Shown in pieces: positions 4,001-64,000 of a stretch of 64,000 nt of DNA (its first letter is position 1; each line of letters opens with the position of its first letter). This DNA is from a virus: positions 15,974-79,973 of the IMG/VR virus record IMGVR_UViG_3300012202_000039. One strand, 5' to 3'. The notes under the pieces are model-generated. The model did no database searches and was not told the origin of the DNA. It worked only from the letters and a program-made list of their open reading frames with translations. Made by a program: the position numbers and the translations under genes.

Positions 4001-4394
4001 AGATTTAGATGCTATTGTTCAAGGTATGGATAACGACAAGAAACTCCGTAAAGAATTTGCTAAGTTTAAACAAGAAACTGGTGGTGGCGGTGATGAAGAA
4101 GAACAAGGTGGTGGACAAGGTCAGCAATTCGCTTCGGATCTGAGTAAAAGTGTGGGTAGTAGCGTAGCTCGTGTTGGTTTAGGTAATAGAACAACGGATG
4201 ATCCCCGCTACAAGATTAGAGGTTCTAATAATAAGGGTACACCGCAGGAACTTTCACGTAAAGGTGAAAAACTAGCTAACGAACGTATGCACAAGTTAGT
4301 AGCTAATATCCTAGCCGAGCGGCAACGTCAGGAAATCGTCAAGGAAAATAGCAAATTTAACAAACTTAAGGGTTTAAGGAAACCAAATAAATAG
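1047..4394 (+). CDS. portal protein (probable), intein-containing; about 623 aa after splicing
   Basis: Heads the head module upstream of protease, scaffold and MCP; spliced size fits a portal; charged low-complexity C-tail; clear intein inside. Confidence 0.7.
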   Translation: MHILIKGFGRTGVVSSKVGGRSFTETATDGGNLSGFGIGGNYGLGASAIIPNTDLELLDGLISFRSDQIVRKVYRDIYWHDVIAGGAVDIQSTIPFSDFSLSGINDPKVLEVYMQAIENMSILTLLPSVRIDQLVLGTFIGVTNFDREINNYTSLTPINIDMTQITPAPLFDMDPIIDLRFAKDTQRYLRNTKDHRYQRIRNKMPQWMIDGISKGRVLLDSANVIYLPRKTLSTNNLGTSYFRRILPIHIMEKAILRGSIQQAYRRQRAIGWARVGDDEWEPTNNELSSILSMLQCLTGDTLISIENKLTRLDKICSRKGMQKDEGKKINLKIKGKDGKIVTANKWWYRGYDYVNNIKTEHGYSLKATDTHRILVLNDKLKLIWKYTKDLKIGDKLCLDSNISKSENNTQLKVDINLPTLVTRPQSGGMTAKAIDIPKEMYPKLAYLLGLLVSEGHVHKHYVAITNSAEILLEEAIDCFKEIFYLNPRIEWMDRIGQEIVINGVHTGTTRSLSGVVRAHSIYASHILQKLGVSSSETLRLNGDKYPANYKEIPWSILQADDESKYAFIAAYLDGDGGLEVHDTNSGKNILLIIRSFSKKLLKQMQIMLLDLGYHSHISYDLNRLTINRNNAAKLYAKISKYLKHPDRIIKDCSGQANDMGEGIPVAPIRKLFQSRFIRSEYRKHFFLNDEGKEISIKHYGVFLAKTLSHNTLRTEAYNRDEYKNILDALKIISKKFYNTVVDLLGVGYRYESITSITKLAKKQHLYDLTIDKKSESAFVANGIVVHNSADMDPIGAFLVTRNGIDYQDIREGGQFWSFNDVFDTFSNAKMRGLGISEGLLSQENTYSTLEASISMFMDQIKSDREQTTREMFTNRIFANIAITNDFKRKNPRMEVPNDAEQYPTLSSMTTKGSPRGVHRTEDGRYFAVCSSASARSQLSEYQIPSVHWHKQLEPKGDRDYVDLLSTLEEKGVPVPLRVYAASVGVDLDAIVQGMDNDKKLRKEFAKFKQETGGGGDEEEQGGGQGQQFASDLSKSVGSSVARVGLGNRTTDDPRYKIRGSNNKGTPQELSRKGEKLANERMHKLVANILAERQRQEIVKENSKFNKLKGLRKPNK
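1932..3407 (+). mobile_element. intein with LAGLIDADG homing endonuclease (492 aa, C296-N787)
   Basis: N-junction Q|CLTGDTLI; block B TDTHRI; LAGLIDADG-like YLLGLLVSEG and FIAAYLDGDG; C-junction LYDLTI...FVANGIVVHN|S. Confidence 0.95.
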
Positions 4395-4891: not shown

Positions 4892-5716
4892 ATGCAACTA
4901 ACTAAAGAGGTAATCTTAGCTAGGATAGACATTTCTTACCACGATAAAGCCGAAATAATTTACAATTCTATTAAATCCAGCATACTGAAGGGTGATTTAG
5001 TAAAAGTACAAAATGCGGAACTAAATACTAAATGGGATACTAAAATCTTATACAGATTTAGCAATAAAGAATTTTACGAAAAATATAAGGATATCAAAAA
5101 TATTCTATTCGCGGATAGTAATCACCCTAAATTTAAAGACGGCAGAGGTCTAGAGGGGTATAAAAATTACGTAGCACCATTAAAATTACTTTATACCTTT
5201 CATATTTATCGGTATGAAAAAGAAGTTAATATAATTTTAAGAATTAAAGCAAAAGAATTCAATAAAAACCAAATAACTAAGTTATTTGAACTAGATGCTT
5301 TAAAGGAAATAATGATACATGAGTTAACTCACTATATACAACGTAATAAACTCGTGTATTTTGAATCACCTTTTAAGGAATATAAAAGAGATTATATAAA
5401 AACTAGGGAAGAACGTGAGGCTTTTCTTAATAGCTTAATCGTTATTCTAGATAAATATATATTCCAAAAAGATAAGTCTAGTCTAAGTAATATAAATGAT
5501 TTTGAAGTAGCTGTTTTACATAAAATACTAGATTTAGTAAAAAATAAAACTAAATCTTCTCTTAAAGGTTCTTATGTCGCTACCTATATTAATCTGTCCG
5601 AAAAAGATAAACAAACCTATATAGATGATTTGTATAGGTATTTCAGGAAGAAATACAATATAACTAAGGAGGGACCGAGAACTAGCACTACTAAGTTATC
5701 TATAGGTAAGAAATAG
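4892..5716 (+). CDS. HExxH zincin-like protein, paralog 1 (putative internal head protein)
   Basis: MIHELTHYIQ plus downstream EREAF; paralog of 8101-8850. Confidence 0.65.
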   Translation: MQLTKEVILARIDISYHDKAEIIYNSIKSSILKGDLVKVQNAELNTKWDTKILYRFSNKEFYEKYKDIKNILFADSNHPKFKDGRGLEGYKNYVAPLKLLYTFHIYRYEKEVNIILRIKAKEFNKNQITKLFELDALKEIMIHELTHYIQRNKLVYFESPFKEYKRDYIKTREEREAFLNSLIVILDKYIFQKDKSSLSNINDFEVAVLHKILDLVKNKTKSSLKGSYVATYINLSEKDKQTYIDDLYRYFRKKYNITKEGPRTSTTKLSIGKK

Positions 5717-8100: not shown

Positions 8101-8850
8101 ATGCAACTAACTAAAGAGGTAATCTTAGCTAGGATAGATATTTCTTACCACGATAAGGCTGAAGCTATATATAAAATAATTAAACAAGAAGTGCTTAAGG
8201 GAAAGTTAATAAAACAAAGTAACACAGCTTTGAGTAAACATCTAGATTCTACAACTATTTATTTATTAAATTCTGAACGATTTAATGAACTATATAAGAA
8301 TACGACTATATCTTTCTCTACCTATAAAACTAGTTCATATTTTAACGAAAATAAGCACGCCTCTGGTTTTACGGATCAGAAAGGTAGTATAAAGCTGTTA
8401 TATACATTTAGAATTTATACTTCCAAATTTAAAAATGATCTCCATTTCTTAGTTCCACGGTTGAATAAGCAAGAAATTATATCTTTCTTTACTTATGATT
8501 TGTATAAAGATATATTTATTCATGAGTTAACGCACTACCTTCAGATACATAAACGTTTATATTTTGAATCTCCCTTTAAGAATGCTGATAATGATTACTT
8601 TAAACAAAGAATAGAACGAGAAGCATACTTGAATAGTTTTATTGGAGATTTAAAGAATATCATTATAAAAAATCCAGAAAAATATCTACAGTCATTAAAC
8701 GATTTTAAAAATTTAATAAAATATGAATTAAGAAATGGCGGTAATGCTAAAGATATATTAGATAACCTATCCAATACTACGAGAGAGCAATATTATATAG
8801 ATGTATACGAATATTTCAGGAAGAAATATAAGCAAGGACTAAATACATGA
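8101..8850 (+). CDS. HExxH zincin-like protein, paralog 2
   Basis: FIHELTHYLQ...EREAY; first 21 aa identical to 4892-5716. Confidence 0.65.
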   Translation: MQLTKEVILARIDISYHDKAEAIYKIIKQEVLKGKLIKQSNTALSKHLDSTTIYLLNSERFNELYKNTTISFSTYKTSSYFNENKHASGFTDQKGSIKLLYTFRIYTSKFKNDLHFLVPRLNKQEIISFFTYDLYKDIFIHELTHYLQIHKRLYFESPFKNADNDYFKQRIEREAYLNSFIGDLKNIIIKNPEKYLQSLNDFKNLIKYELRNGGNAKDILDNLSNTTREQYYIDVYEYFRKKYKQGLNT

Positions 8851-11067: not shown

Positions 11068-11280
11068 ATGAACGAACCTAAGAAAATTTTACATATTACA
11101 GTTGGTTCTGATGATTGGTATTCTACTAATGTAGAATTGGAGCAAGTTTATAATTTATTTAAAAATGGTATATTAAATGCGCATAATTGTGTTACACAAA
11201 GAGGTATTGAAGTTAAGGCTATAGATAATATTGAAGATATAGATGAAATTGTCATCAGGCGTAAGATGAAATTACCTTAA
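11068..11280 (+). CDS. small protein homologous to the portal segment flanking the intein site
   Basis: ILHITVGSDDWYSTNVEL...VTQRGI vs portal IGWARVGDDEWEPTNNEL...VTRNGI; AAGGAG RBS. Confidence 0.7.
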   Translation: MNEPKKILHITVGSDDWYSTNVELEQVYNLFKNGILNAHNCVTQRGIEVKAIDNIEDIDEIVIRRKMKLP

Positions 11281-11415: not shown

Positions 11416-12336
11416 ATGTACCTAGGCCACGTAGTCAAAGCTGAAGCTATCCCTCAGTGGTTTTCTGATATGAATAAAGAAGGTCAACAAGGCTACTTAA
11501 AAGATCACCCTAACTCCAAGATTGCTCATACAGTTAAGAATAATCCGAAAGCTTTGAAATCTGGTAGTAGGGGTGGAACTAATAAACCAGCTCCACACGA
11601 TCCTAAGAAGACTCTAGATATTATCAAAAAGAATCCTAGGGTTCAGAAGGCGCTTAAACCAAATTCTCCAGAACGACAGGAATTAGCTGGTAATTTAAAG
11701 AAATATAAAAAATTAATGGATAAGACCTATAAAGGATTAGATTTAGAAACTAGAGATGCACTTAGGGCTACTTCTGCTAAACTAAAAGCTGGTAAGAAAT
11801 TAGATGAAAAAGATATGCAAGGTATAGTAAATTTAACAAATGAATATACTAAGAAAAATAAATACGGATTAGGTAAGGCGGCAGCCAATGCAGTTGGTGC
11901 GGGTATTGGTGTTGCTGCTATGAACGTGGGCGGAGCGTTAACATTATATACTGGTGGTTTGGCAGGAACATTAGGAATTGGGGCAGCAGGTACAGCTGCC
12001 GCTATTGCCGCTCCTCTTGGTATTGGGCTGTTAGCAGTTGGCGCAGGTATATATGGGTATAATGCATTTAAGGGTATTAGAGGAAATTTTAGAAATTTAC
12101 GAGGCAAAACTAAAATTAACGACAGAGAAACCCAAGAATTACTTAAACACAAGAATGAATTCAGTACTATTACAGCTTACTTCTACACTAAAGCAGAAGA
12201 CAATACTCCCGATGATCCTATTCAAACTATTCTAGATCACATGTCTAAGGCGGTGCAGACTACTAATCTCTCCCCAGAGATGTGGGCACAGATGTTAACT
12301 CCTATTAAAAGTGAAGCTAAAGAAAAAGAGGAATAG
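11416..12336 (+). CDS. glycine-zipper family paralog A (putative internal head/ejection protein)
   Basis: WFSDMNKEGQQGYLKDHPNSK motif, NSPERQ motif, central Gly/Ala hydrophobic segment. Confidence 0.6.
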   Translation: MYLGHVVKAEAIPQWFSDMNKEGQQGYLKDHPNSKIAHTVKNNPKALKSGSRGGTNKPAPHDPKKTLDIIKKNPRVQKALKPNSPERQELAGNLKKYKKLMDKTYKGLDLETRDALRATSAKLKAGKKLDEKDMQGIVNLTNEYTKKNKYGLGKAAANAVGAGIGVAAMNVGGALTLYTGGLAGTLGIGAAGTAAAIAAPLGIGLLAVGAGIYGYNAFKGIRGNFRNLRGKTKINDRETQELLKHKNEFSTITAYFYTKAEDNTPDDPIQTILDHMSKAVQTTNLSPEMWAQMLTPIKSEAKEKEE

Positions 12337-12338
12337 AG

Positions 12339-13187
12339 ATGTATTTTCCCTCTGAAAAAGAATATTTTAAAATAATGTCTAGTGTTGGCAAGCTAGACAT
12401 TAATATAGATTTAAATGAAATATTATCTTCAGTAATACCTCTACATAATATCAGGTCTTATTACGAAGGTGCTAAAGCTTTACCTAAGTTCGACAAATCT
12501 AGTCTCAATAAGATATCACAGTCTGGAACTAAGTCTATAAATAAAGCTAAAACTACATTAAAATCTAACGGCGTTAATATAACTTTACTTCAAAGCTTAT
12601 GCTATAAGTATGGTAAAACCTATCGTGCCGGCTTTGATCCACAGAAATTCGCTCAACATATCAAAGAAATTCACACTAAAGTATCAGTTAAAGAGTTACC
12701 TAAAACTATACTATTATTACTAGTCATGCTTATAGCCTCGTTATTATTTCAAATGATATTATTCTCAATTATAGTAACCGGTTTATCCGCTGTCGGTATA
12801 TCTATAGCTGGAGGCTTTATATTTACAATAGTTAACATCATTTACTTAGTTCTAGGGGCGCCTATATTTGAAGAAACTGCCAAAAAATACGCAAATGAAC
12901 ATGGATTTGGAAATACTTATGTAACATTATTTACTTACGCCGAATTTGCTAAATACGTAATTACTTTTGCACATGCCGGCGTTGCCGTCCTAACTATTGT
13001 AGCTTATAGAATATTAGCAGCAGTTCTTCATTTTTATACACATTATTTACAAAAAGAAAATGTAGATTTTACGGGTAAGAAAAGTGATATTAAGAATGCA
13101 GGTTACAAAACAGGACTAGCAGTTCACGGTCTTTGGAATTTTTGTTTAGGCGGCTTACCCATGGTACTACAACTTATTCTTAAATAA
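12339..13187 (+). CDS. PrsW/CPBP-like intramembrane protease
   Basis: Multiple TM helices with EETAK, FTYAE, LHF and HGLWN motifs (EExxK, FxxxE, H, HxxxN). Confidence 0.7.
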   Translation: MYFPSEKEYFKIMSSVGKLDINIDLNEILSSVIPLHNIRSYYEGAKALPKFDKSSLNKISQSGTKSINKAKTTLKSNGVNITLLQSLCYKYGKTYRAGFDPQKFAQHIKEIHTKVSVKELPKTILLLLVMLIASLLFQMILFSIIVTGLSAVGISIAGGFIFTIVNIIYLVLGAPIFEETAKKYANEHGFGNTYVTLFTYAEFAKYVITFAHAGVAVLTIVAYRILAAVLHFYTHYLQKENVDFTGKKSDIKNAGYKTGLAVHGLWNFCLGGLPMVLQLILK

Positions 13188-13204
13188 TATAGGAAGCTAG
13201 AGAA

Positions 13205-13921
13205 ATGCCAGATAAAAAAGCTTTACAAAAAATTATCGATGATCCCCGAACTAAAAAGGCTATGCAATCTAACTCTCCTGAAAGACAAGCTTTAGCTAAG
13301 ACAATTCTCAAATATAGAAAACCCGTACAGAAAGTTTATAAATCTCTCCTACCAGGAGAGAAATTACTTATGGATGCTATAGCTAATAAGTTACGTAAGA
13401 ATGAGAAACTAGATAAGAATGATATTAAGGATTTATCTAGTTTCACTCAAAGATATACACAGGAGATCGATCCCGCTTCCTATAAAAACATGTATAAGTA
13501 TGAACGAAATAGTAGTTTACAAGGAGGATTATTAGCATTCGCTTTAATACCTTGGGCTGCTAAAGGTTTAGCAACTCAATTTAGTGGTCCTCTTGTTGGT
13601 CTCGCGGCAGGTGTTGTTTCTTTCCCACCGGCCGTAATTTTTGGTACAGCAGCTTTAGCTGGTTTATCTTTAGGTATGGAAATATATAGTGCATATAAAG
13701 GTATTAAGAATTGGATTATGCGTATAAGAGGTACGGATAAAATTGATACAGATCAACTAAAAAGTGTATTAAAACATCAACCTTTAAGTCATGTACATGC
13801 TTACTATATATCAGCGGATAACGATAATTCTGAAGCAACCGTCGATACAATTCTAAAAGCCACGGCTAAAGCAATTTTAACTGTTAAAATTAATCCAGAG
13901 GATCTTATGAAAGCTGCGTAA
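13205..13921 (+). CDS. glycine-zipper family paralog B
   Basis: DDPRTKKAMQSNSPERQALA; hydrophobic core; C-terminus similar to 11416 ORF. Confidence 0.6.
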   Translation: MPDKKALQKIIDDPRTKKAMQSNSPERQALAKTILKYRKPVQKVYKSLLPGEKLLMDAIANKLRKNEKLDKNDIKDLSSFTQRYTQEIDPASYKNMYKYERNSSLQGGLLAFALIPWAAKGLATQFSGPLVGLAAGVVSFPPAVIFGTAALAGLSLGMEIYSAYKGIKNWIMRIRGTDKIDTDQLKSVLKHQPLSHVHAYYISADNDNSEATVDTILKATAKAILTVKINPEDLMKAA

Positions 13922-13922
13922 T

Positions 13923-14747
13923 ATGTTAATATTTGCTACTGAAGATAAAAATTCTTGGTTCTACGATATGAATAAAGATCAACAGGATTTGTATATCACT
14001 AGGCATCCTAACTCCAAATTCGCTAAACAAGCGTCACCAGAACAAGGTGACGCTGATGCTTTTTCTACACATATTTTAGACGATAAAAAAGTACAGAAGG
14101 CTACACAGCCTCACTCCAAACAGCGTAAACAAGCCGCTAATAGTGTTACTAACCAAGGGAAATTAATCGAGGATTATTATAGTAAACTGCCTAAGACTGA
14201 TAAGCTTAAGTTAGATAGTTTCACTAAAAAATTAAGTAATAAAGAAAAGATATCTAAAGTAGATTTTAAACCAGTTAAAACATTCTTTAATAAATATCAA
14301 AAGTGGGTTAAAGGTTTAGATAGCGAAAAAATTGGTAAACTAGCTATTAAGGGTGCGGCCGTTTTTGCTATTGGCTCTTTCGTGGCAGCTAATATACCTC
14401 TAGCTGCTTTAGCTGGAGTGGTATTTTTATCTAGTAAGTTTAAAGGACCGGAACCTAAATTTTTGGGTCCAGTTAGGCAGCCTAAAAAAGAAGCAGAAAC
14501 TGAAGAATCTGCACCTAAGTATACTAAATCCAAGCCTAATATAATCGATACTGAATACGAAGAAGTTCCTAACGATGAGTATCTTGATCATAAACAACCT
14601 AAGCAATTGCAACATATCACTAGCTACTTTAATATAGCAGCAGTAGATAATACTCCACAAATTCTAGTTAAGCATTTAGCTGATGCACTTCAGTCACATA
14701 ACTTTACCAAAGAACAGTGGCAATATTTATTACGGCACCAATCATGA
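13923..14747 (+). CDS. glycine-zipper family paralog C
   Basis: WFYDMNKDQQDLYITRHPNSK; KKVQKATQPHSKQR; hydrophobic core; shared C-terminal DNTP..IL..HL motif. Confidence 0.6.
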   Translation: MLIFATEDKNSWFYDMNKDQQDLYITRHPNSKFAKQASPEQGDADAFSTHILDDKKVQKATQPHSKQRKQAANSVTNQGKLIEDYYSKLPKTDKLKLDSFTKKLSNKEKISKVDFKPVKTFFNKYQKWVKGLDSEKIGKLAIKGAAVFAIGSFVAANIPLAALAGVVFLSSKFKGPEPKFLGPVRQPKKEAETEESAPKYTKSKPNIIDTEYEEVPNDEYLDHKQPKQLQHITSYFNIAAVDNTPQILVKHLADALQSHNFTKEQWQYLLRHQS

Positions 14748-26393: not shown

Positions 26394-29006
26394 ATGCCAC
26401 AATTTTATCTTTCTCCTGGCGTCTACAATACTGAAATAAATTTATCCCAGAGAGTGCAGGCAGCAGCATCTTCTACGGGTGCCGCAGTATTTGAATCGCA
26501 TAAAGGTGCTTTAGGCCAACAGTTCTATACTAATCGTGATGATTTTTTACGTGATTACGGTAACCCAGATCCTACTGTCAGTTTCGGTCACGATTGTGTA
26601 TTAGATTTCTTTACCCAATCTAATTCTATGTGGGTTGATCGAGTAATTAATGGATCTACTTGGGCAGGATCCTTTGTACATAATAATACAGGTGATAGTA
26701 CAGCAACCTCCACTTATTATGATAAGTTTGATATTGGTAATAATAATCAATTTGATGGTGGCACTGAACAAGATATCACCGTCTTAACTTTTAGTGGAGC
26801 TATAATAACTGCTAATAGCATTACAGGTACTGTTACTGATGGTATTGTGACTTCTCCAGTTACGATTGGCCCTACGGTTTTTGCTACGAGTAATAATGCC
26901 ACTTTAACCGCTTTTGCTACGGCTATTCAAAATGCTATTAATTCAATTAATGGTACTTACGCTGCTTTAGGTGGCGTAGCTGAAGTTATAGACACAGGAA
27001 CAGCTAATAATCGTAGTATTAGGGTTATTGCACCACAAGGAGTTATTTTAACTTTTACTGGTCTTGTGATTACTTTAGGTGCTAGCCAAGCTACTATTTC
27101 TGATCAAACCGGGGTTAAATTATTTGACGTTTTCGCGATCGGTCCTGGTACTTATGCTAATGGCGCAGTTGGGTTTAAAACTAGTGGTATAAATCAAGGT
27201 ATCCCCTCACGATATAATATATCATTTAGCGCCGCTTTAATTACGAGTAACGTATTTAGTGGAACAGTTAATGGCTTTAATATTGGATTTAATCAGGTAC
27301 TGACATTAACTTTCAGTACAACTTTAGTAACTGGTAACGTATTTAATGCTACAGTTAACGGTGTAGCTTTAACTCCGATTAATTTTACGACGGATAGCGC
27401 TACGACTATGGCAGCTATTGCCACAGCAATTCAAGCGGCTACAGTTACATTAAATCCAGGATCTACCGCTACAGTTAGCGGTAATGTAATTACTGTGACT
27501 TGTGGTCGTCCCTTATATAACGTCAATACTATTACTGGTTCTGTTGTTACTGGTGGTGCTGGACAGGCTACTGTTACCTTAGCTACCGCATCTCCTGTGC
27601 AAACTAACGTAATATTTTCTGCTAATAATAACCAAATGTTAAGTGATATTGCTACAGCTATTCAATATGCAATGGACATTAATATTAGTACAGGAGGTAG
27701 TACTGCTATAGTTAGTATACCAGGTTCATTGACTATGAACCGACAGATTAACGTAGTTACTCCTAAAGCTACTTTTGATCTGACTTTTGCTAATCTATTA
27801 GTTACTAGTGGCTCTAGTCAAGCTAGTGTGGTCGTTAGTCAGACATTAGTTCGTACTCCACCTAACGGCACTTTTCAATTTCAAGTATTTGCTAACGGTA
27901 ATGTTGTCACTCCTGTTGAATCATACGTTGTATCTATGGCAAATCAGCAGGATGGTTTTGGTAATCAACAGAATATTGCTCAGGTAATTAATCTAAGTGC
28001 TAGGGCTTCTAAATATGTACGAATTTGGCAGCCAAGTACTTCTTTAAGTTTACCTATAGTTACGGATACAGGTGGATCTATTATTTTTCTTGCAAATGGT
28101 GGTGATGGTTCAGCCGCTACTTCGTCAAATATCAATGCAGGTTGGAATACCTTTATTAACCGTGATCAAAATGAAATTCGTATTCTATTAAATTGTGGTT
28201 ACACTAACGTCGCTGTTCAGCAGAATATTGATGCTTTAGCTAATAGTCGATTTGACTGTTTTGGTATTCTTGACACACCCTCAAACTTACAGGCGACGAC
28301 TAGTGCAACTAACTATCGTCTTAATACACTAAACATCAATTCATCTTATTCTGGTATGTATAGTCCAGATTCTCAAATTGTAGATGAATTTACGGACCAA
28401 ATTAGATTTATTCCTAATTCTGGTAACGTAGGTGCTACTTTCGTCTTTACGGATACATCTCGGGCAACGTGGTTTTCTCCCGCTGGTTTAAATCGTGGTC
28501 AAATTCGTAACATTCAAGCGTTACGGGTTGATTATGAACAAGGTGATCGTGATCAACTGAGTCCTAATCAAGTTAATGCTATTATTAAGAAACGTGGTAA
28601 AGGTTTCTTTGTTTTTGATGATCAAACTCTATCTGCGGTAAAGAGTGCATTATCTAACATTAACGTTCGCCGTCTATTAATCTTTATCGAAGTTGCTATT
28701 ACCGATGCATTAGACTTCGATCTTTTTGAACCAGATGACGATTTTCTTGGATTTACTATTGTACAAATGTTGAATGATTTTCTCTTACCTATTCAACGAG
28801 GTAGAGGATTATTTGACTTTCTAGTAGTATCTGACGATACGAATAATTCAGCTTCAGATATAGATGCTGGACAGCGTAACGTTGATATTTATCTGAAGCC
28901 TACGTTAGCCGCACGAGTTATTAAAGTACGTACAGGTATAACAAAGACAGGGGCTAACTTCAGTGAATTAGTTGCTGCGGGTGGATTAGCAGCTGTCGCT
29001 GGATAA
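26394..29006 (+). CDS. tail sheath protein
   Basis: SPGVY..E N-terminus; WFSPAGLNRG, INVRRLL and VDIYLKP C-terminal motifs. Confidence 0.95.
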   Translation: MPQFYLSPGVYNTEINLSQRVQAAASSTGAAVFESHKGALGQQFYTNRDDFLRDYGNPDPTVSFGHDCVLDFFTQSNSMWVDRVINGSTWAGSFVHNNTGDSTATSTYYDKFDIGNNNQFDGGTEQDITVLTFSGAIITANSITGTVTDGIVTSPVTIGPTVFATSNNATLTAFATAIQNAINSINGTYAALGGVAEVIDTGTANNRSIRVIAPQGVILTFTGLVITLGASQATISDQTGVKLFDVFAIGPGTYANGAVGFKTSGINQGIPSRYNISFSAALITSNVFSGTVNGFNIGFNQVLTLTFSTTLVTGNVFNATVNGVALTPINFTTDSATTMAAIATAIQAATVTLNPGSTATVSGNVITVTCGRPLYNVNTITGSVVTGGAGQATVTLATASPVQTNVIFSANNNQMLSDIATAIQYAMDINISTGGSTAIVSIPGSLTMNRQINVVTPKATFDLTFANLLVTSGSSQASVVVSQTLVRTPPNGTFQFQVFANGNVVTPVESYVVSMANQQDGFGNQQNIAQVINLSARASKYVRIWQPSTSLSLPIVTDTGGSIIFLANGGDGSAATSSNINAGWNTFINRDQNEIRILLNCGYTNVAVQQNIDALANSRFDCFGILDTPSNLQATTSATNYRLNTLNINSSYSGMYSPDSQIVDEFTDQIRFIPNSGNVGATFVFTDTSRATWFSPAGLNRGQIRNIQALRVDYEQGDRDQLSPNQVNAIIKKRGKGFFVFDDQTLSAVKSALSNINVRRLLIFIEVAITDALDFDLFEPDDDFLGFTIVQMLNDFLLPIQRGRGLFDFLVVSDDTNNSASDIDAGQRNVDIYLKPTLAARVIKVRTGITKTGANFSELVAAGGLAAVAG

Positions 29007-29127: not shown

Positions 29128-29661
29128 ATGCCACGTATTTCACTGTCTGATGTGCAATCTTTACATGATCCTATCAGTTCTGAAGCTTATGTACTACAAT
29201 TAGGCACAATTCCTAATTCTATCGGTAATGATCGAGAATTAGCAATTAAATGCTTAAATGCTAATATGCCGGGATTTTCTAATGAAGCTTTTGAAGTAAA
29301 TTTACACTCGCATGTGCGTAACGTACGTGGTCGTAAGATGTACCCACGAACACTGGCCGTGACATATATTGAAGATTCTACATTACATACAACTAACTTA
29401 TTACGTTCATGGAGTGAATTTATTGTAGGCTCGCAATCTGGTACTTCTGCGGGCGATATTGCTCAGTATTCAGTTACCGCCAATCTTCAGGTATTTAACC
29501 ACCAGGGTACGATAATTCAGGATATCAATTTCTTTCATTTCTTTATTCAGGAAGTTCCTGATGTGCAGCTTACGGGTGAATCTTCGACTTTAATGCAAAT
29601 TCCAGTTACATTTAAATATGATCATTTCTTAACTAATATTGGACCAGTTACCACAAGGTAA
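29128..29661 (+). CDS. tail tube protein (T4 gp19-like)
   Basis: 177 aa directly after sheath; LRSW, VTFKYD pattern. Confidence 0.8.
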   Translation: MPRISLSDVQSLHDPISSEAYVLQLGTIPNSIGNDRELAIKCLNANMPGFSNEAFEVNLHSHVRNVRGRKMYPRTLAVTYIEDSTLHTTNLLRSWSEFIVGSQSGTSAGDIAQYSVTANLQVFNHQGTIIQDINFFHFFIQEVPDVQLTGESSTLMQIPVTFKYDHFLTNIGPVTTR

Positions 29662-29665
29662 TTAT

Positions 29666-30559
29666 ATGAAAAGGGTATCACTTAACGACGTTCAATCTAT
29701 ACCTGATTTTGCACAAAAAGATAATTTTAATTTCGTATTAGGTAATACTCCTGGTGGAAGTACAGATAGAAAATTACACATAAAGTGTAATTCTATTACA
29801 TTTCCACCATTAGAGAATGAACCTATTATAGTAAATCTTTGGGGGCATAAAGTAAAACATCGTGGTAAATTTGTGCCTCCACAAGATATCACGGTTACTT
29901 ATTATGAAGATAATAAATATAGAACTTTAAAAGCTTTACGTTCTTGGCATAACGCTGTTGTTAATCCGGTTACTGGATCAACAGCTTATGGCAAAGTTGG
30001 CTATACTACTATAAGTGAATTAAGTTTATATGATCAAAAAGGTCATATAGGTTATGGGATAGGTTTCGTAAATATGTTTCCACAGAGGATAGAAGGTTTT
30101 GAATTAAGTGGTGACTCTTCTGGTCCTATATTAATATCAGTGAATTTTGGTTACGATTATATGGTTGAAGTTGGAAGTTTTGGTGGTATAGGTGGATTAT
30201 TAACGGGTAGTAGTGCCCTAGGTGGTGTAGTTAATACAGTTATATCTAATTTAGGTTTAAGTGCTAATGTTCTAGGTATTGATGTAGGTTTAAATCCTAA
30301 TGGATTAACATTAAATGGTGGTGGTATTGGTTTAACTGCCGGGTTAGATGGCGTAGGTATAGATACCGGTGGAGTAATTAGTAAAGCCTTTGATATTTTT
30401 GCAGGTAATGGAATATTTGGAGGTAATAATATAGGACAATCTAATGGTGCTGGTGGTATTCCTGGTGCTGGTACATTAGGAGATGATTCAGCAACTAATC
30501 CACAAGTATCGAATAATGCTCCGCAAAGTGTAATTACTTCTAATCTTGGATTAGGCTAA
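29666..30559 (+). CDS. tail tube-like protein with Gly-rich C-terminal extension
   Basis: N-terminal 170 aa paralogous to 29128 ORF (RVSLNDVQS, LRSW, VNFGYD). Confidence 0.7.
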   Translation: MKRVSLNDVQSIPDFAQKDNFNFVLGNTPGGSTDRKLHIKCNSITFPPLENEPIIVNLWGHKVKHRGKFVPPQDITVTYYEDNKYRTLKALRSWHNAVVNPVTGSTAYGKVGYTTISELSLYDQKGHIGYGIGFVNMFPQRIEGFELSGDSSGPILISVNFGYDYMVEVGSFGGIGGLLTGSSALGGVVNTVISNLGLSANVLGIDVGLNPNGLTLNGGGIGLTAGLDGVGIDTGGVISKAFDIFAGNGIFGGNNIGQSNGAGGIPGAGTLGDDSATNPQVSNNAPQSVITSNLGLG

Positions 30560-31056
30560 TGATACCCTCCCTATCACGTAATCGCGCCCAGCAATTAGCA
30601 CCACCTGCGATTGATTGGCGTTGGGTAGTTAATTTACCTAGTATACCCGGGGCTCCTAATTCAAAAAATATAGTTGTTGAAGCAATAGAATTTCCTCATT
30701 TTAGTATATCTGCTATTCCTAGGTTTAATGGAGCTTCTAATCGTCATTATCCTGGTATATCAGAAATATCCGCATTCGCTATGACATTTTATGAAGATAA
30801 TATGTTTAGTGCAACTAAATATTTATATGCTTGGAAAAGCTTAGTAGTTGATACTAATGGAATTTATGGTGTTCCAGCTGATTATAAAAAAGATCTTCGC
30901 TTAAGAATGTATGATATTCAAGACCATATAATGTTTAATGGTACATTACAAGAATGCTGGCCAACTAATATTTCTTCTTATAGTCTTAATTATAATGATT
31001 CTAATCGTTTAACTATATCAGCACAATTTGCTACAGATGGTTCTACGGTAGTTTAA
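30559..31056 (+). CDS. tail tube-like/tube initiator protein
   Basis: MTFYED..YLYAWK, CWPTNISSYSL tube-fold pattern. Confidence 0.7.
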   Translation: MIPSLSRNRAQQLAPPAIDWRWVVNLPSIPGAPNSKNIVVEAIEFPHFSISAIPRFNGASNRHYPGISEISAFAMTFYEDNMFSATKYLYAWKSLVVDTNGIYGVPADYKKDLRLRMYDIQDHIMFNGTLQECWPTNISSYSLNYNDSNRLTISAQFATDGSTVV

Positions 31057-39234: not shown

Positions 39235-39678
39235 ATGACTATACCTCCACAAGTAACTATACTGCCAACTAATATACATAGTCGCATAGTAATTTATAAT
39301 GATATAAATTTAAATTTTACGATAGATAATGATCCTTTTATTGTAAATAATGTCTTAGCTATTAATAAGAAAATAATTAATTTATTACAAACAACGATAG
39401 GCAGTCGACCATGGGAACCAACTTTTGGCTCTAGAGTACCAGATCTACTTTTTGATCCAGTTGATGATATTACAGCTTGGGAATTAGAAACAGCTATATT
39501 TGATGCTATACAAACTTGGTTGGGCACTGAAATTCAATTAGATTTAACTAATACTTTAATAATACCAGATAAAGATAATGGAGAATTTCTAGCTAGAATA
39601 GCTTATATTATAAAAAAGAATAATGTAGTTACTTCTATCGAAGTGAATTTATCGCCAAATAACAATATGAGTATATAA
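39235..39678 (+). CDS. gp25-like baseplate/sheath initiator
   Basis: NLLQT.IGSRPWEPTFGS..DLLFDP. Confidence 0.9.
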   Translation: MTIPPQVTILPTNIHSRIVIYNDINLNFTIDNDPFIVNNVLAINKKIINLLQTTIGSRPWEPTFGSRVPDLLFDPVDDITAWELETAIFDAIQTWLGTEIQLDLTNTLIIPDKDNGEFLARIAYIIKKNNVVTSIEVNLSPNNNMSI

Positions 39679-56424: not shown

Positions 56425-56778
56425 ATGAAAAAGTATTTTTTATTACTATTACTTAGTATATCCGCTTGTTCTAACCCTTCTCCTCCTATGGTTATAACTA
56501 ATACTATAGTGCAATATCCTGAATTTCCACCCGTGCCGGCAGTTCCACCTTTGAATTTAGAAGTATTTAAATATGACTTACCAAGAGATAGTAAAGGCAA
56601 TATACTAAATAATCCTAATTCTTTTGTGTGCCTATCCCAGAATGATTTTAACACTTTACAATTAGATTTTAATAAATTAAAAATTCAAATAAAATTATAT
56701 CAAAATAGAATAGATGAAGTTAATAATCTTAGAACGCAATGGATAGATTTAAACAAAAATAAAGCCACTAAGAATTAA
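56425..56778 (+). CDS. outer-membrane spanin lipoprotein (Rz1-like)
   Basis: MKKYFLLLLLSISAC lipobox followed by Pro-rich segment. Confidence 0.8.
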   Translation: MKKYFLLLLLSISACSNPSPPMVITNTIVQYPEFPPVPAVPPLNLEVFKYDLPRDSKGNILNNPNSFVCLSQNDFNTLQLDFNKLKIQIKLYQNRIDEVNNLRTQWIDLNKNKATKN

Positions 56779-56803
56779 CTTAGTGGCGGAATATTTTAAA
56801 CGT

Positions 56804-59256: not shown

Positions 59257-61572
59257 CTAAAGTATTCGAGTTATTTTAGACTTTCCTCCCTGTTTAACTA
59301 CATGATATTCACTATTCGCGCAAGATATTGGGAATTCTTCTGAAGTTCTTGGGGTTATTATTACTAAATGTGGAATAATAGCTTTAAGCCGTGGAAGAAA
59401 TTCATCTGCTATTAATTTTAGAGTTTCTTCACCACAATTAGAATCTATTTCATCTAAAATTAATACATTAGTTCTCATATTATCTGGAATAATAGATAAC
59501 ATACTTAATAGACAAAGTAATCTAAAACATTGAGTTTCGGATCCAGATAATAATTGAACATCTGAACTAAGTCCTGAACGTAAAGCTATAATATCAAATT
59601 TATTCTCAGTTACGTTAAGTTTAAACTGGAAGTTTTCAGCAAATACCAAAGAAGAGTATTTGTTTAAACAATCTTCAAAAAGCTTAGCGAAACCTTTAAG
59701 TTGCTCTATACGTATGCCTTTAGGACCGTAAGCTAACACTAAATCTTTGTATAACTCAAAATCCTTTAAATCTATATTATATTGTGTAATATCCTTTTCA
59801 AAATCTTTAGATATATTTATATCATGTTTAAGCATACTTAAATCTATATTAAGTTTTTCAATATTCTCTTGCGTAGAGTTTATTTTTTGCATTAAAGGCA
59901 TTAATTTAATCTCTATATTAGATCTCATAATTTCTAGTTTATTAACATTTTTATTACCAAGTTTATTTAGAAATTTTTCATCAGATTTATATTCATCAAG
60001 TAATATTTTATATTTATCTAATGCTTTAGTATATTTAACTATTAAGTTATTACTATTATGTGGAAGTTTAGGTAATTCATTAATATCTAAAGTGGATATT
60101 TGTGTTTTTATTCTATATTTAATTTTAGCAAAATGTAACTTCTTAGTTAAACTATTTAATAGTTTATTCAGATTAAAAATATACTTAGTTGGATCTTTAT
60201 ATAAAGGTATAGTTAATGTAGCTAGCTTTTCTTTTAGTTCTACATATTCTATTTGTTTCTCTATTCTTATTTTATGTGAGTTATATTTTATTATGATTCG
60301 TTTAGCTTTATATAGATGAATTTTTGTTTCTTGTGGATTTAATTGTTGTTTACAAGTAGGACAGATTTTTTTACTAGATATATTACTAAATATTTTAATA
60401 TTATTAGTATAAGTAGTTAACTTAAATTTTATATTATCTAGTATATCTTTCAATACTTTAACTGGTTTAGCAGAGGGATATGCATTAGTTTCTAACTCTT
60501 GTTTAATTTCATTATATTGCTGAGCTTTCTCTTCTTCTTGATTATAGGTGGTAATTAATTCATTTAGTTTAATTATTTTACTTTCATAATACTCTATTGA
60601 TTTAATTTGCTTTAACTTAGTTAATGCTTTTTTATATTTTAATCGTTTGTCATGTAGGGGTTTTAATTCATTATATCTTATAATGAGATCTTTTAGTTTA
60701 TTAGTTTTATCTTCTATATTAGAAATATAGATATTTAATTTAATTATCTTCTTGCTTATAGTAGAAAGATCTAAATCTTTATGTTTGATATTATCATAAT
60801 ACATGAAATATTTATTTAAAGTATCTTGACGTTGTTTAAATTTAGTTTGTAAAACAAATAACTTATTATAAAGCTTACGTTTTAGTTTTAACTCACAATT
60901 TTTGTTATTTTGTAAAGATTCTAACTTATCTAACTTAGTTATATTATATTCTTTAAATAGATGTCCATCATGGTCTACTTTTTTATCCAAAATATATTCT
61001 AAAGTTACTTTTTTCTTTTTTAGTTCACCCAAATATTTATTTAACTTATTACGAATACTATCATATATTTCTAAACTAAATAGAGATTCAAAGAAATCAT
61101 GTCGTTGTGCAGATGTACCTACTTGTAATATATTATCACGTAAAGCATTTATATAAGTATAAGTATAAAAATGTTGTTCTTTTTGGTGAAAGAGTTTTTG
61201 AATTTCATTTTTTACTTCACTTCTAATTTTTATATTATGTTTTTTAGGATCAAAACTTTCTTTACTATCATGTTGATATACAACATAATTAACTCCGCTA
61301 TTTTTACTTTTCTGTTCAATATGACTTATTTTGCTATTTTCTTGAATACCAATACGTATATATGAATTACCATTATGAAGTTTTTTAGCCGTATTTTTCT
61401 TACGATCTAAAGGTGGAGAAAAATAGATAATATTACCTAATAAAGAGTATGCCAGACTTTTTCCACTACGATTACCTCCTCTAATAACTCGTAATTCGTT
61501 ATCTGGAAAAGTCAAATTCAAATTATCATAGGTAATAATATTTTTGGCTTCTAGATATAATAACTTAATCAT
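59257..61572 (-). CDS. SbcC/Rad50-like (T4 gp46-like) recombination ATPase
   Basis: Walker A GGNRSGKS, coiled coils, CPTC zinc hook, LSGSE signature, Walker B ILDE. Confidence 0.9.
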   Translation of the reverse strand: MIKLLYLEAKNIITYDNLNLTFPDNELRVIRGGNRSGKSLAYSLLGNIIYFSPPLDRKKNTAKKLHNGNSYIRIGIQENSKISHIEQKSKNSGVNYVVYQHDSKESFDPKKHNIKIRSEVKNEIQKLFHQKEQHFYTYTYINALRDNILQVGTSAQRHDFFESLFSLEIYDSIRNKLNKYLGELKKKKVTLEYILDKKVDHDGHLFKEYNITKLDKLESLQNNKNCELKLKRKLYNKLFVLQTKFKQRQDTLNKYFMYYDNIKHKDLDLSTISKKIIKLNIYISNIEDKTNKLKDLIIRYNELKPLHDKRLKYKKALTKLKQIKSIEYYESKIIKLNELITTYNQEEEKAQQYNEIKQELETNAYPSAKPVKVLKDILDNIKFKLTTYTNNIKIFSNISSKKICPTCKQQLNPQETKIHLYKAKRIIIKYNSHKIRIEKQIEYVELKEKLATLTIPLYKDPTKYIFNLNKLLNSLTKKLHFAKIKYRIKTQISTLDINELPKLPHNSNNLIVKYTKALDKYKILLDEYKSDEKFLNKLGNKNVNKLEIMRSNIEIKLMPLMQKINSTQENIEKLNIDLSMLKHDINISKDFEKDITQYNIDLKDFELYKDLVLAYGPKGIRIEQLKGFAKLFEDCLNKYSSLVFAENFQFKLNVTENKFDIIALRSGLSSDVQLLSGSETQCFRLLCLLSMLSIIPDNMRTNVLILDEIDSNCGEETLKLIADEFLPRLKAIIPHLVIITPRTSEEFPISCANSEYHVVKQGGKSKITRIL

Positions 61573-61575
61573 GAT

Positions 61576-62220
61576 TTATACAAACTTTGTAGTTTTAATA
61601 TTATCTAGGGTTAAACGCTCTTTACCTAATTCTAAAGCATCTAATTCTTTAAATACATCAATTATATCGAAAAAGAAATCACTCTGTATTCGTAAACGAT
61701 TAGGTATAACTAAATCAGTACTAGTTGAAGAAATAGATTTATTTTCAGTTAATTCTTCAATTCTTGATAAACCTATAGTAACAACACAAACTCCCATTTC
61801 ACGTATAATACGAATAGGATAATCAAAATCTGGATTATGTGTCATAACCCATATTACATCTAGCTGTGGATTATGATTATGTATACGTACCATAATATCT
61901 GTAAGCATTTCTAAATCTATACGTCTACTTTTAATATTATCTATAGCATCTCGTGTTCTAACTAGATAGCCTTGATAGGCTAAAGTCTGTAAAAAACTAG
62001 TAAAATTATCACTATTACGATCATTAGAATTTATAGCAGAGTAGTAATATACTCCACTAACTCTGTATTGTTGGCGTAGAGCTAAGAGAAATTCTTTATA
62101 CAAGAATTTAACTCGTAATCTTTGAGATGCCTTATAGGTTAGATCACTATCAATAAATATTGCAATATTAGTCCCTTTGTATATATCTAGAAATTTAGTG
62201 TAATTAGTTAATTTCGACAT
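61576..62220 (-). CDS. NYN/LabA (PIN-like) domain protein with degenerate active site
   Basis: IAIFIDS, YYYSA, IDLEM..D, THNPDF..PI...REMG..V..IG, SDFF.DI. Confidence 0.7.
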   Translation of the reverse strand: MSKLTNYTKFLDIYKGTNIAIFIDSDLTYKASQRLRVKFLYKEFLLALRQQYRVSGVYYYSAINSNDRNSDNFTSFLQTLAYQGYLVRTRDAIDNIKSRRIDLEMLTDIMVRIHNHNPQLDVIWVMTHNPDFDYPIRIIREMGVCVVTIGLSRIEELTENKSISSTSTDLVIPNRLRIQSDFFFDIIDVFKELDALELGKERLTLDNIKTTKFV

Positions 62221-62228
62221 AATCCATC

Positions 62229-63260
62229 CTATAAATGACTTAGAGCACAAATGATACTATCTTCATCTATTGGCTTGGTTAATAGTTCTTTTTTAACAAA
62301 GATTAGTTTATTATGTATTAATACAGAGAATTTAATATTCGGTTTAGCTATTTGACTTTGAAATTTCTTATATAGTGGAATAAAGCGACGATTAGCGGCA
62401 CCACTAAGTTCTTCCACAATAAATCTATTCAATAACATTGTGCGAAATAAAATAGATACTAATTGATCTTTATTAATTAAAGCTAGTTTGATTAAACTAG
62501 CTATATTATTTTTATATACGTTAACTAGAAATTCTACGGCTAAATCATCTAATGGTGATTCTGTTTTTAACAAGATAGATTTAAAAGTGCTATCATCTAT
62601 TTTGAATTTAGGATTACTCGAATAACGGTTAACAAAGGCTGAAAATTGGTTGATAGAATCTCGTATACTTCCATTAGAGTTAATTGCTATATATTTACAT
62701 GCTAACATCAAGGATTTAGGGGGTATTTTTAGCTGTTCTTTACCTGCTATATATAGCAGGTTATCTATAATAATGTTAGGTGGAATATGCTCTAGAGCTA
62801 TAAGTTCGCAGCGATTTTTGATCGTAGGTAATAGTGCCTCGGGCTCATTAGTACAGAGAATCCAGATAATATGCGGTGGGGGTTCTTCTAATGCCTTAAG
62901 AAAAGCATTAGAAGATAACTTCTGAATACCTTGTACCTCGTCGAGGATAATAACCTTGTATTTATGCTTGGGCTTAAATCGTATAATTTTAACCAGATCA
63001 CGAATATCTTCAATACTTCTCTTATCACTAACATTTATCTCTATTGTATCTTCATCAGAGTTGTTTAGTTTATTAGCAATAATTCTAGCTAGGGTAGTCT
63101 TGCCCGTACCAGTATTACCTGTGATTAGTATACGTGGTGGTATATTAGTATTCTTAAGAAAACCCCGTATTTGTGCTACAGCATTCGGTTGCCCCAAAAA
63201 TCTCTTCAATATTTTAGGGCGATACTTTAGATCGTAAGGAGTATTAATCATTTTTAGCAT
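62229..63260 (-). CDS. DNA polymerase III gamma/tau-like clamp loader ATPase
   Basis: KYRP....LGQ, GNTGTGKTTLAR, VIILDEV, NAFLKALEEPP, TIKNRC, GSIRD. Confidence 0.9.
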   Translation of the reverse strand: MLKMINTPYDLKYRPKILKRFLGQPNAVAQIRGFLKNTNIPPRILITGNTGTGKTTLARIIANKLNNSDEDTIEINVSDKRSIEDIRDLVKIIRFKPKHKYKVIILDEVQGIQKLSSNAFLKALEEPPPHIIWILCTNEPEALLPTIKNRCELIALEHIPPNIIIDNLLYIAGKEQLKIPPKSLMLACKYIAINSNGSIRDSINQFSAFVNRYSSNPKFKIDDSTFKSILLKTESPLDDLAVEFLVNVYKNNIASLIKLALINKDQLVSILFRTMLLNRFIVEELSGAANRRFIPLYKKFQSQIAKPNIKFSVLIHNKLIFVKKELLTKPIDEDSIICALSHL

Positions 63261-63457: not shown

Positions 63458-63880
63458 TTATTCTCCCTCTAGATTTACGCTCAATGGAATGCTAATATAC
63501 TTAACTGGAGCTATAGGTTTAAGCATCAAATCAAAACTATAATCATCTACGAAGTTAACTTTAACTTCACGAAATGTAGAGCTATATTTTTCTGTTAAAA
63601 TGACAGATATATCTTCTTCAGTAAAATCGAATGTTTTTAATGTATCAATAAAACACTCTACACTTAGATTATGAAATAATTTATTAATAGTTTCTGCATC
63701 TCTACTTTTTAAAAGAGCTTTTGTATTATTATTTAATGAACTAGCATAACTTACAGTAGATTTAAAAGTAGTGCTATCTTCAAAGTTATTGTAACTCATA
63801 ATACCGGCCACAGCTGATTCCATAGAATTTAATAGTCGGCTAACATTAATGTTATCTTCAACTTTTTTAATTTCAGTCAT
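63458..63880 (-). CDS. stand-alone tail sheath C-terminal-domain-like protein
   Basis: NINVSRLLNSMESAVAGIMSYNNFE vs sheath NINVRRLLIFIEVAITDALDFDLFE; FDLMLKP vs VDIYLKP; AGGAG RBS. Confidence 0.65.
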   Translation of the reverse strand: MTEIKKVEDNINVSRLLNSMESAVAGIMSYNNFEDSTTFKSTVSYASSLNNNTKALLKSRDAETINKLFHNLSVECFIDTLKTFDFTEEDISVILTEKYSSTFREVKVNFVDDYSFDLMLKPIAPVKYISIPLSVNLEGE

Positions 63881-64000
63881 CTTAGTTCTCCTATTAGTTC
63901 AGACTGTGTTTAGTTTATGTTAAACCTAAGTTTAGCCCCCGCTATCATATGTAGATATACCTTAGCAATCTGATTATCTCCATGTTTATCGGTAATCGCG

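Follow-up and report, generated by a model that had tools for sequence, protein, structure and literature searches.

What would a piece of the tail sheath do among the replication genes of a phage? The question is raised by a 140-codon ORF in the DNA of a large uncultured soil phage. The window (the whole stretch analysed, 64,000 nucleotides) is the right-hand 64 kb of a linear IMG/VR virus record of 79,973 bp, and positions below are those of the window unless they are given as genome positions. A reading made from the sequence alone had placed the ORF on the minus strand at 63458-63880, which is correct in coordinates, strand and length, and had taken it for a stand-alone C-terminal domain of the sheath.

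Contractile sheaths, whether of phage tails, tailocins, T6SS or injection systems, polymerise through a conserved strand-exchange network. A literature search found no natural protein known to imitate one half of this network and so to poison or cap it. If the ORF codes for a sheath domain that stands alone and can only accept arms, its product would be an obvious candidate for such a role.

Genome context

The structural genes are read from the plus strand and are divided by a bidirectional terminator from an operon on the minus strand, whose end it also forms (Table 1). This operon runs from the record end through the 140-aa ORF, a 69-aa winged-helix-like ORF and the genes for the clamp loader, the NYN nuclease and the SbcC-like ATPase to three unknown genes. 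The position proposed from the sequence alone, about 35 kb from the sheath gene and upstream of DnaX, NYN and SbcC, agrees with this order, into which the 69-aa ORF has to be inserted. The product of the latter is without relatives in phage records or in the PDB.

No terminator-like site was found on the minus strand between the 140-aa ORF and the clamp loader gene (63880 to 62229), and one weak match lies further down, within the NYN gene (61851-61831). We infer early expression of the ORF solely from its position in the operon. A scan for sigma-70 promoters returned 59 sites for 52.6 expected, a count that is uninformative in such AT-rich DNA, and the motif CTGTAAAT is not enriched in the window.

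The cultured phages with the most similar clamp loaders are jumbo phages, namely PaBG (35% identity), GR7B, BCSR5, Motura and Lu11. The succession of clamp loader and SbcC genes is syntenic in PaBG, GR7B, Lu11 and HRDY3. A search of IMG/VR with the clamp loader returned no close relatives.

The ~36-nt repeat directly upstream of the ORF has two further copies at the other record end, both on the plus strand (genome positions 253 and 999), and its core motif stands before seven small genes at this left end. The repeat marks junctions of small-gene cassettes; it might act as a promoter or a processing site, or represent a recombination junction. Contig depth over 63886-64000 is ~8-fold that of the flanks, and assemblies of two soil metagenomes break there. 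This pile-up and these breaks put the ORF where cassettes of an accessory-gene array join, but the replication genes follow it without a terminator.

Both ends of the 80-kb record carry paralogous pentapeptide-repeat genes in inverted orientation (window 63886-64000, minus strand; genome 200-290 and 940-1030, plus strand). The last ~20 codons of these paralogues and the GTCTGAACTAA junction that follows them are near-identical.

Paralogues are also found in the structural module, where all genes named here lie on the plus strand. Three tail-tube paralogues (phrog_45) stand in succession at 29128-31056, the second with a long Gly-rich C-terminal extension. The head module has a paralogous pair of 41% identity (4892-5716 and 8101-8850, E 1e-52) and three paralogous genes at 11416-14747 with 27-32% identity among them. 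A 70-aa ORF at 11068-11280 has a weak likeness to the portal protein (1047-4394) of 25 bits in BLASTP, and its Smith-Waterman score of 56 against the portal is reached by one of 1,000 shuffles. By this likeness it may be a second gene for a virion-protein fragment in the same genome.

Table 1. Coordinates of the features discussed, in order of their position in the window (strand: + or -)
Feature	Position	Strand	Remarks
Structural module	1-56,800	+	Sheath, three tube paralogues, gp53-, gp25- and gp6-like baseplate genes
Tail sheath, 870 aa	26394-29006	+	C-domain at residues ~740-870 (nt 28611-29003), probable homologue of the 140-aa ORF
Canonical gp25-like sheath initiator	39235-39678	+	Baseplate module; PF04965 28.0 bits (cut-off 27.2); phrog_261, phrog_43
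Bidirectional terminator	56764-56787	both	Between structural module and minus-strand operon; operon end
SbcC-like ATPase	59257-61572	-	Downstream of the 140-aa ORF, same direction
NYN nuclease	61576-62250	-	Downstream of the 140-aa ORF, same direction
Clamp loader (DnaX-like)	62229-63260	-	Downstream of the 140-aa ORF, same direction
Winged-helix-like ORFan, 69 aa	63244-63453	-	Basic, pI 9.0; MarR_2 E 0.076; 4 nt downstream of the 140-aa ORF
140-aa ORF	63458-63880	-	15.9 kDa, pI 4.7; probable free-standing, highly diverged homologue of the sheath C-terminal domain
Last beta-hairpin match	63482-63541	-	ORF residues 114-133; D..LKP..P.KYI.I; second HMM stretch
Helical insertion	63686-63760	-	ORF residues ~41-65; no sheath counterpart; from alignments and predicted helices
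First-helix match	63761-63868	-	ORF residues 5-40; INVxRLL...E.A...FE; sheath 751-785; HMM stretch of 16.8 bits
Ribosome binding site (RBS)	63886-63891	-	GGAGAA, 5 nt before the ATG of the 140-aa ORF
Repeat of ~36 nt	63894-63929	-	Ends in GTCTGAACTAA; includes the 3' end of the pentapeptide-repeat paralogue; directly upstream of the 140-aa ORF
3' end of upstream gene	63910-64000	-	Truncated at the record end; paralogous to the pentapeptide-repeat genes at genome 1-247 and 283-993

The ORF as a gene

The 140-aa ORF is a real, maintained gene. It is preceded by an RBS, its codon log-likelihood with the long genes of the phage as reference is +0.196 bits per codon in frame, with negative values in the other five frames, and the frame stays open in DNA of ~30% G+C at ~22% identity to any sheath. 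The chance of an open frame of 140 codons is ~1e-5, an estimate of our own from base composition and not the output of a program. Open frame, RBS and genome-typical codon usage together speak for long-lasting selection at the protein level.

The protein is a singleton in the databases. A search of 5.8 billion 90% clusters found no relative beyond the protein itself, which is recorded in identical form on a 185-kb contig. HMMER over 1.8 billion 50% representatives matched only the query, tblastn against 50,697 phage records gave nothing meaningful, and Pfam and PHROG scans yielded only sub-threshold, unrelated matches. Two DNA runs of soil metagenomes contain the stretch and may be its source, whereas no RNA run was listed with it; contigs from the two show no variants within the ORF. 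In five related IMG/VR contigs, one of them complete, the sheath C-domain occurs in the sheath itself and no second copy was found. Short proteins that match the resident sheath C-domain were also searched for and none was found, with a word index that would miss the 140-aa ORF too.

Homology to the sheath C-terminal domain

Pairwise comparison of the ORF product with the resident sheath gives 26.2 bits in BLASTP (E 7e-4 as a single pair). When all 68 window proteins are compared with each other the same pair has an E-value of 0.095 and takes rank 13, at the top of the noise. Pairwise BLASTP alone is thus borderline, and the significance of the match comes from sequence profiles.

A first profile was built from sheath residues 735-870 and 22 database relatives of 28-72% identity. 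It gives the ORF 23.2 bits and the other 66 non-sheath proteins of the window at most 3.2 bits, and none of 5,000 composition-preserving shuffles reaches the score of the ORF (maximum 16.9 bits). The ORF scores 22.7 bits if the phage's own sheath is left out of the profile and 17.5 bits if only the nine most distant members are kept. Comparison with the sheath C-domain profile in hhalign yields a probability of 74.5% (E 2.7e-5). An independent profile of 74 sheath C-domains from IMG/VR aligns residues 9-40 and 66-132 of the ORF with 17.0 bits, again above all of 20,000 shuffles.

Profile and ORF were also both cut into an N part (ORF 1-42) and a C part (ORF 43-140). The N part scores 21.1 bits, which none of 20,000 shuffles reaches (maximum 12.4; p<5e-5), and the C part 8.0 bits, reached by 20 of 20,000 (p=0.001). 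The analytic E-values of HMMER are too optimistic here, with shuffles reaching 15-17 bits, and for this reason the homology call rests on empirical nulls. One of these was made up of 1,479 real ORFs from phage loci, 261,000 residues in all, and in it noise stays at or below 7 bits. Beyond 80 sheath genes, only Lu11 gp115, its HRDY3 counterpart and the 140-aa ORF exceed 10 bits in this set.

BLASTP against the full sheath of the relative P0013 joins ORF residues 10-131 to sheath residues 656-746 in a single gapped alignment (E 1e-4). This alignment and the profile statistics support the proposal that the stand-alone ORF spans the sheath C-terminal domain. The resemblances described for its two ends stand as well. 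The ORF start, NINVSRLL...FE, is identical without gaps to sheath residues 755-779 (nt 28656 onward) at exactly the 11 of 25 positions that had been counted, and its final strand segment is identical to that of the sheath at 5 of 16. The ORF was not recovered at E<=1 with the Pfam profile Phage_sheath_1C (PF17482), put forward in the sequence-only reading as a check, but with this profile even the resident sheath stays below the cut-off of 26.9, at 21.4 bits.

The family profile matches T4 gp18 residues 535-656 (E ~1e-45), which identifies the domain as gp18 domain IV, the core of Phage_sheath_1C. From these comparisons the 140-aa product is very probably homologous to the C-terminal (inner, ring-linking) domain of the T4-type contractile tail sheath. 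Its Smith-Waterman scores are 74 to the sheath of P0013 and 69 to that of P0014, against 60 to the resident one, and its hairpin motif LKPxxPVKY matches the relatives P0010, P0012 and P0014 better than the LKPTLAARV of the resident sheath. The ORF is therefore at least as close to the sheaths of relatives as to the one it accompanies, which points to an old or imported copy and not to a recent self-duplication.

Anatomy of the free-standing domain

Residues 5-40 and 114-133 (or 66-132) of the ORF align in order with both ends of the sheath domain, and the middle is poorly conserved. The ORF starts 9 residues ahead of the first helix of the domain and stops ~7 residues past its last strand, limits that coincide with those of the Pfam domain in the resident sheath (751-849). 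Motifs retained from the sheath are INVxRLL, E.A and FE, which lie in helix 1, and D..LKP..P.KYI.I of the final hairpin. Several others that hardly vary among sheaths have been lost, namely RGL, CDxxNN, the G..F.E of the arm and the region of N781 and T785. About 25-35 residues, predicted to be helical, are extra to the ORF, and the placement of the insertion given in Table 1 is uncertain because MAFFT sets these residues after helix 2 instead.

The 140-aa protein has neither an N-terminal arm nor a match to PF04984 and is no complete tail sheath protein. Where sheaths go on with the nearly invariant G..F.E arm, its C-terminal arm is mostly or wholly missing. A possible trace of it is seen in the last residues, SVNLEGE, which weakly resemble the arm sequence GANFSEL over a very short segment. 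The protein is not a gp25-like initiator, since the phage already has a canonical gene of this type in its baseplate module.

AlphaFold2 run on the single sequence predicts six helices and a C-terminal hairpin at low confidence (pLDDT 58.9), and an alignment of 35 sheath C-domains brought no improvement (pLDDT 54.1). Owing to this low pLDDT the model is not comparable with the sheath domain. A Foldseek search of the PDB with the low-confidence model had no match at E<=0.001. In the ESM Atlas, where the model has a pLDDT of 0.52, a search by features yielded nothing of use and the structural neighbours stayed below a TM of 0.4.

Sheath-fragment genes in other phages

Pieces of the sheath C-domain are found in small genes of other large phages. 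Lu11 gp115 (L085:15579-16079) and its HRDY3 counterpart (L086:16504-17052), both from the clamp-loader/SbcC operon, match the sheath segment CDETNNT...VDI with 28.5 and 23.5 bits, respectively. The likeness is strong but confined to the first 30 residues of each, which copy the strand-loop-strand of the sheath; the remainder is unrelated to it. Lu11 gp113, a protein of 143 aa, weakly resembles the sheath C-domain in two places, the first helix and the last strand. Short matches to the CDETNNT...VDI segment also occur in a 236-aa open frame of PaBG (NC_022096.1, 241749-241832; E 7e-4 per genome) and in a 120-aa open frame of GR7B (MT366760.1, 15129-15245; E 0.013 per genome), and these weak, small matches lie outside the clamp-loader/SbcC operon.

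No direct similarity was detected between the fragments of Lu11, HRDY3, PaBG and GR7B and the 140-aa ORF. Nor was the ORF found to be tied directly to the gp113 family of Lu11 (BLASTP E 2.5; 0.1 bits for the ORF on a gp113 profile).

PaBG, Lu11 and HRDY3 each encode a full-length sheath twice, as paralogues of ~545-571 aa whose genes lie far apart. In the replication region of HRDY3, upstream of the clamp loader, a 196-aa protein is annotated as 'portal protein' (L086:1486-2076) and may come from a portal-fragment gene. Lu11 has an ORF of equal length (L085:1593-2183).

The checks in Lu11, HRDY3, PaBG and GR7B suggest that sheath-domain mini-genes are a recurrent feature of replication operons in large phages. 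A literature search for free-standing sheath-domain genes found no description of them. Their recurrence points to a selected, undescribed accessory function, and the 140-aa ORF is apparently one more, very divergent case of this theme, which itself seems not to have been described.

Possible functions

The subunits of a contractile sheath are linked by a handshake: each N terminus is paired with the C terminus of a neighbouring subunit, and the two-stranded sheet so formed docks on a beta-hairpin that an inner domain of the next ring provides (PMC10304247). Tail terminators, for instance that of P1, cap the last sheath ring through the same handshake strands (PMC10304247). The 140-aa protein would be an acceptor-only module of this network, with the hairpin kept and the arms absent. 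Its hairpin would bind the arms of a sheath subunit, either free or at the tip of the growing sheath, and, for want of arms of its own, the next ring would be unable to attach. The protein could so act as a non-extendable cap or as a sequestering partner that delays or blocks sheath polymerisation, and candidate targets are the phage's own sheath or that of a co-infecting relative. The earlier suggestion of a decoy or chain-terminating inhibitor would fit the same anatomy.

This acceptor-only cap or sequestering partner is the best explanation for the ORF, to be held tentatively; binding of the sheath arms is doubtful to a similar or slightly greater degree and is adopted here as the working mechanism. 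Against the model are the lost sheath motifs, the singleton status without conservation and the lack of fold support. The loss of several nearly invariant motifs means that the domain may no longer fold or bind like that of a sheath. In FV3 gp053, C-terminal truncations of up to 100 residues still gave polysheath assembly (PMC6357053), which argues against the model in that interactions of the C-domain are not always limiting. A complex prediction with sheath residues 1-100, sheath residues 500-870 and the ORF gave no answer (score 0.00) and weighs neither for nor against binding.

It is unlikely, though worth considering, that the protein serves anti-defence. As a sheath-derived domain made before the late genes it would occupy or blunt a host sensor of the conserved inner sheath domain, with the winged-helix gene downstream as its regulator, as in anti-CRISPR/Aca pairs. 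An acidic ORFan followed within 4 nt by a small basic winged-helix-like ORFan would suit such a pair, although this arrangement by itself is weak evidence and neither protein has similarity to a known anti-defence or Aca family. The location at the junction of a repeat-bounded array of small accessory genes, the fast evolution of an ORF without relatives and the sheath fragments held by other phages in replication operons are also in line with a decoy. The sole PDB sequence match of the ORF is AcrIIA15, at a non-significant E-value of 0.19; this likeness was rejected as noise. We know of no defence system that senses the tail sheath, and a literature search found none.

The multi-copy repeat in front of the ORF, at which contigs break, invites another reading that we also regard as unlikely. 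A piece of a relative's sheath would have recombined into the cassette junction, gained a start and a stop and drifted, to be re-used in a role outside the tail or to retain little function, and the shared motifs would be relics. This would account for an ORF that is nearer to the sheaths of relatives than to its own, that has lost the central sheath motifs and that is a singleton, and the portal-like ORF at 11068-11280 suggests fragment capture in the same genome. A drifting relic is hard to reconcile, however, with 140 codons that stay open in AT-rich DNA at ~22% identity behind an RBS and with genome-typical codons, signs of long selection, and the parts retained, first helix and acceptor hairpin, are not a random choice.

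A chance or convergent likeness, in which an amphipathic helix and a beta-strand resemble the sheath without common ancestry, is improbable. The pairwise BLAST score at the noise boundary of the all-against-all comparison, the optimism of the analytic HMMER E-values with shuffles at 15-17 bits and the missing fold support would all be expected from it, but three differently built profiles, two independent colinear segments and the null of real proteins separate the ORF from noise.

Structural genes are often placed outside the structural module in jumbo phages, and the 140-aa protein might be a minor virion or assembly component, of which six copies would cap the first or last sheath ring in the manner of a terminator or adaptor. 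The anatomy of the acceptor-only model would serve such a cap equally well, P1 tail terminators bind the handshake sheets of the last ring (PMC10304247), and none of the ORFs immediately before the sheath gene could be assigned to a terminator family. This reading is nevertheless improbable. The ORF lies in an oppositely oriented operon, set apart from the structural genes by a bidirectional terminator, and the protein databases show no conservation of it, not even in relatives whose sheath domains are 50-70% identical, whereas an essential structural part should be conserved.

The acceptor-only module remains the preferred reading, and the analysis supports that the sheath domain is used here as a putative free-standing accessory protein. 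A broader reading, which we consider unlikely at present, is that isolated inner domains and handshake pieces of sheaths form a widespread, undescribed class expressed with the replication genes of jumbo and T4-like phages, where they would cap the contractile-tail assembly of rival phages in a dominant-negative manner or serve as decoys for a hypothetical host sensor of sheath protein. The 140-aa ORF is a supporting case for this class and not its best entry point, being a singleton with a weak sequence signal and no fold model.

Comparison with known systems

The closest known counterpart is the C-domain of T4-type sheaths (gp18 ~535-656, domain IV, PF17482). The ORF is colinear with it from the first helix to the last beta-hairpin and shares INVxRL, E.A, FE and D..LKP..P..I.I. 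Unlike it, the ORF is free-standing, has neither the PF04984 domain nor the N-terminal arm, and its C-terminal arm is missing or degenerate. It also differs in an insert of ~25 residues, in the lack of RGL and CDxxNN, in a score below the Pfam threshold and in its location in a replication operon, 35 kb from the sheath gene.

Lu11 gp115 and gp113 and their HRDY3 counterparts are likewise small genes of the clamp-loader/SbcC operon with pieces of the sheath C-domain. However, gp115 retains another part of this domain than the ORF, gp113 carries a basic insert and the operon positions of these fragment genes differ from that of the ORF.

With anti-CRISPR/Aca pairs the gene arrangement alone is similar, and no homology to an Acr or Aca family is seen. 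The initiator gp25, or TssE, is a small protein thought to engage sheath subunits by sheath-like strand pairing. The 140-aa product is also small, but it has no sequence match to this family (PF04965) and its gene stands outside the baseplate context. Tail terminators such as P1 gp24 use their own N and C termini and another fold; what the 140-aa protein would share with them is the proposed action, namely to engage exposed handshake strands and so end polymerisation (PMC10304247).
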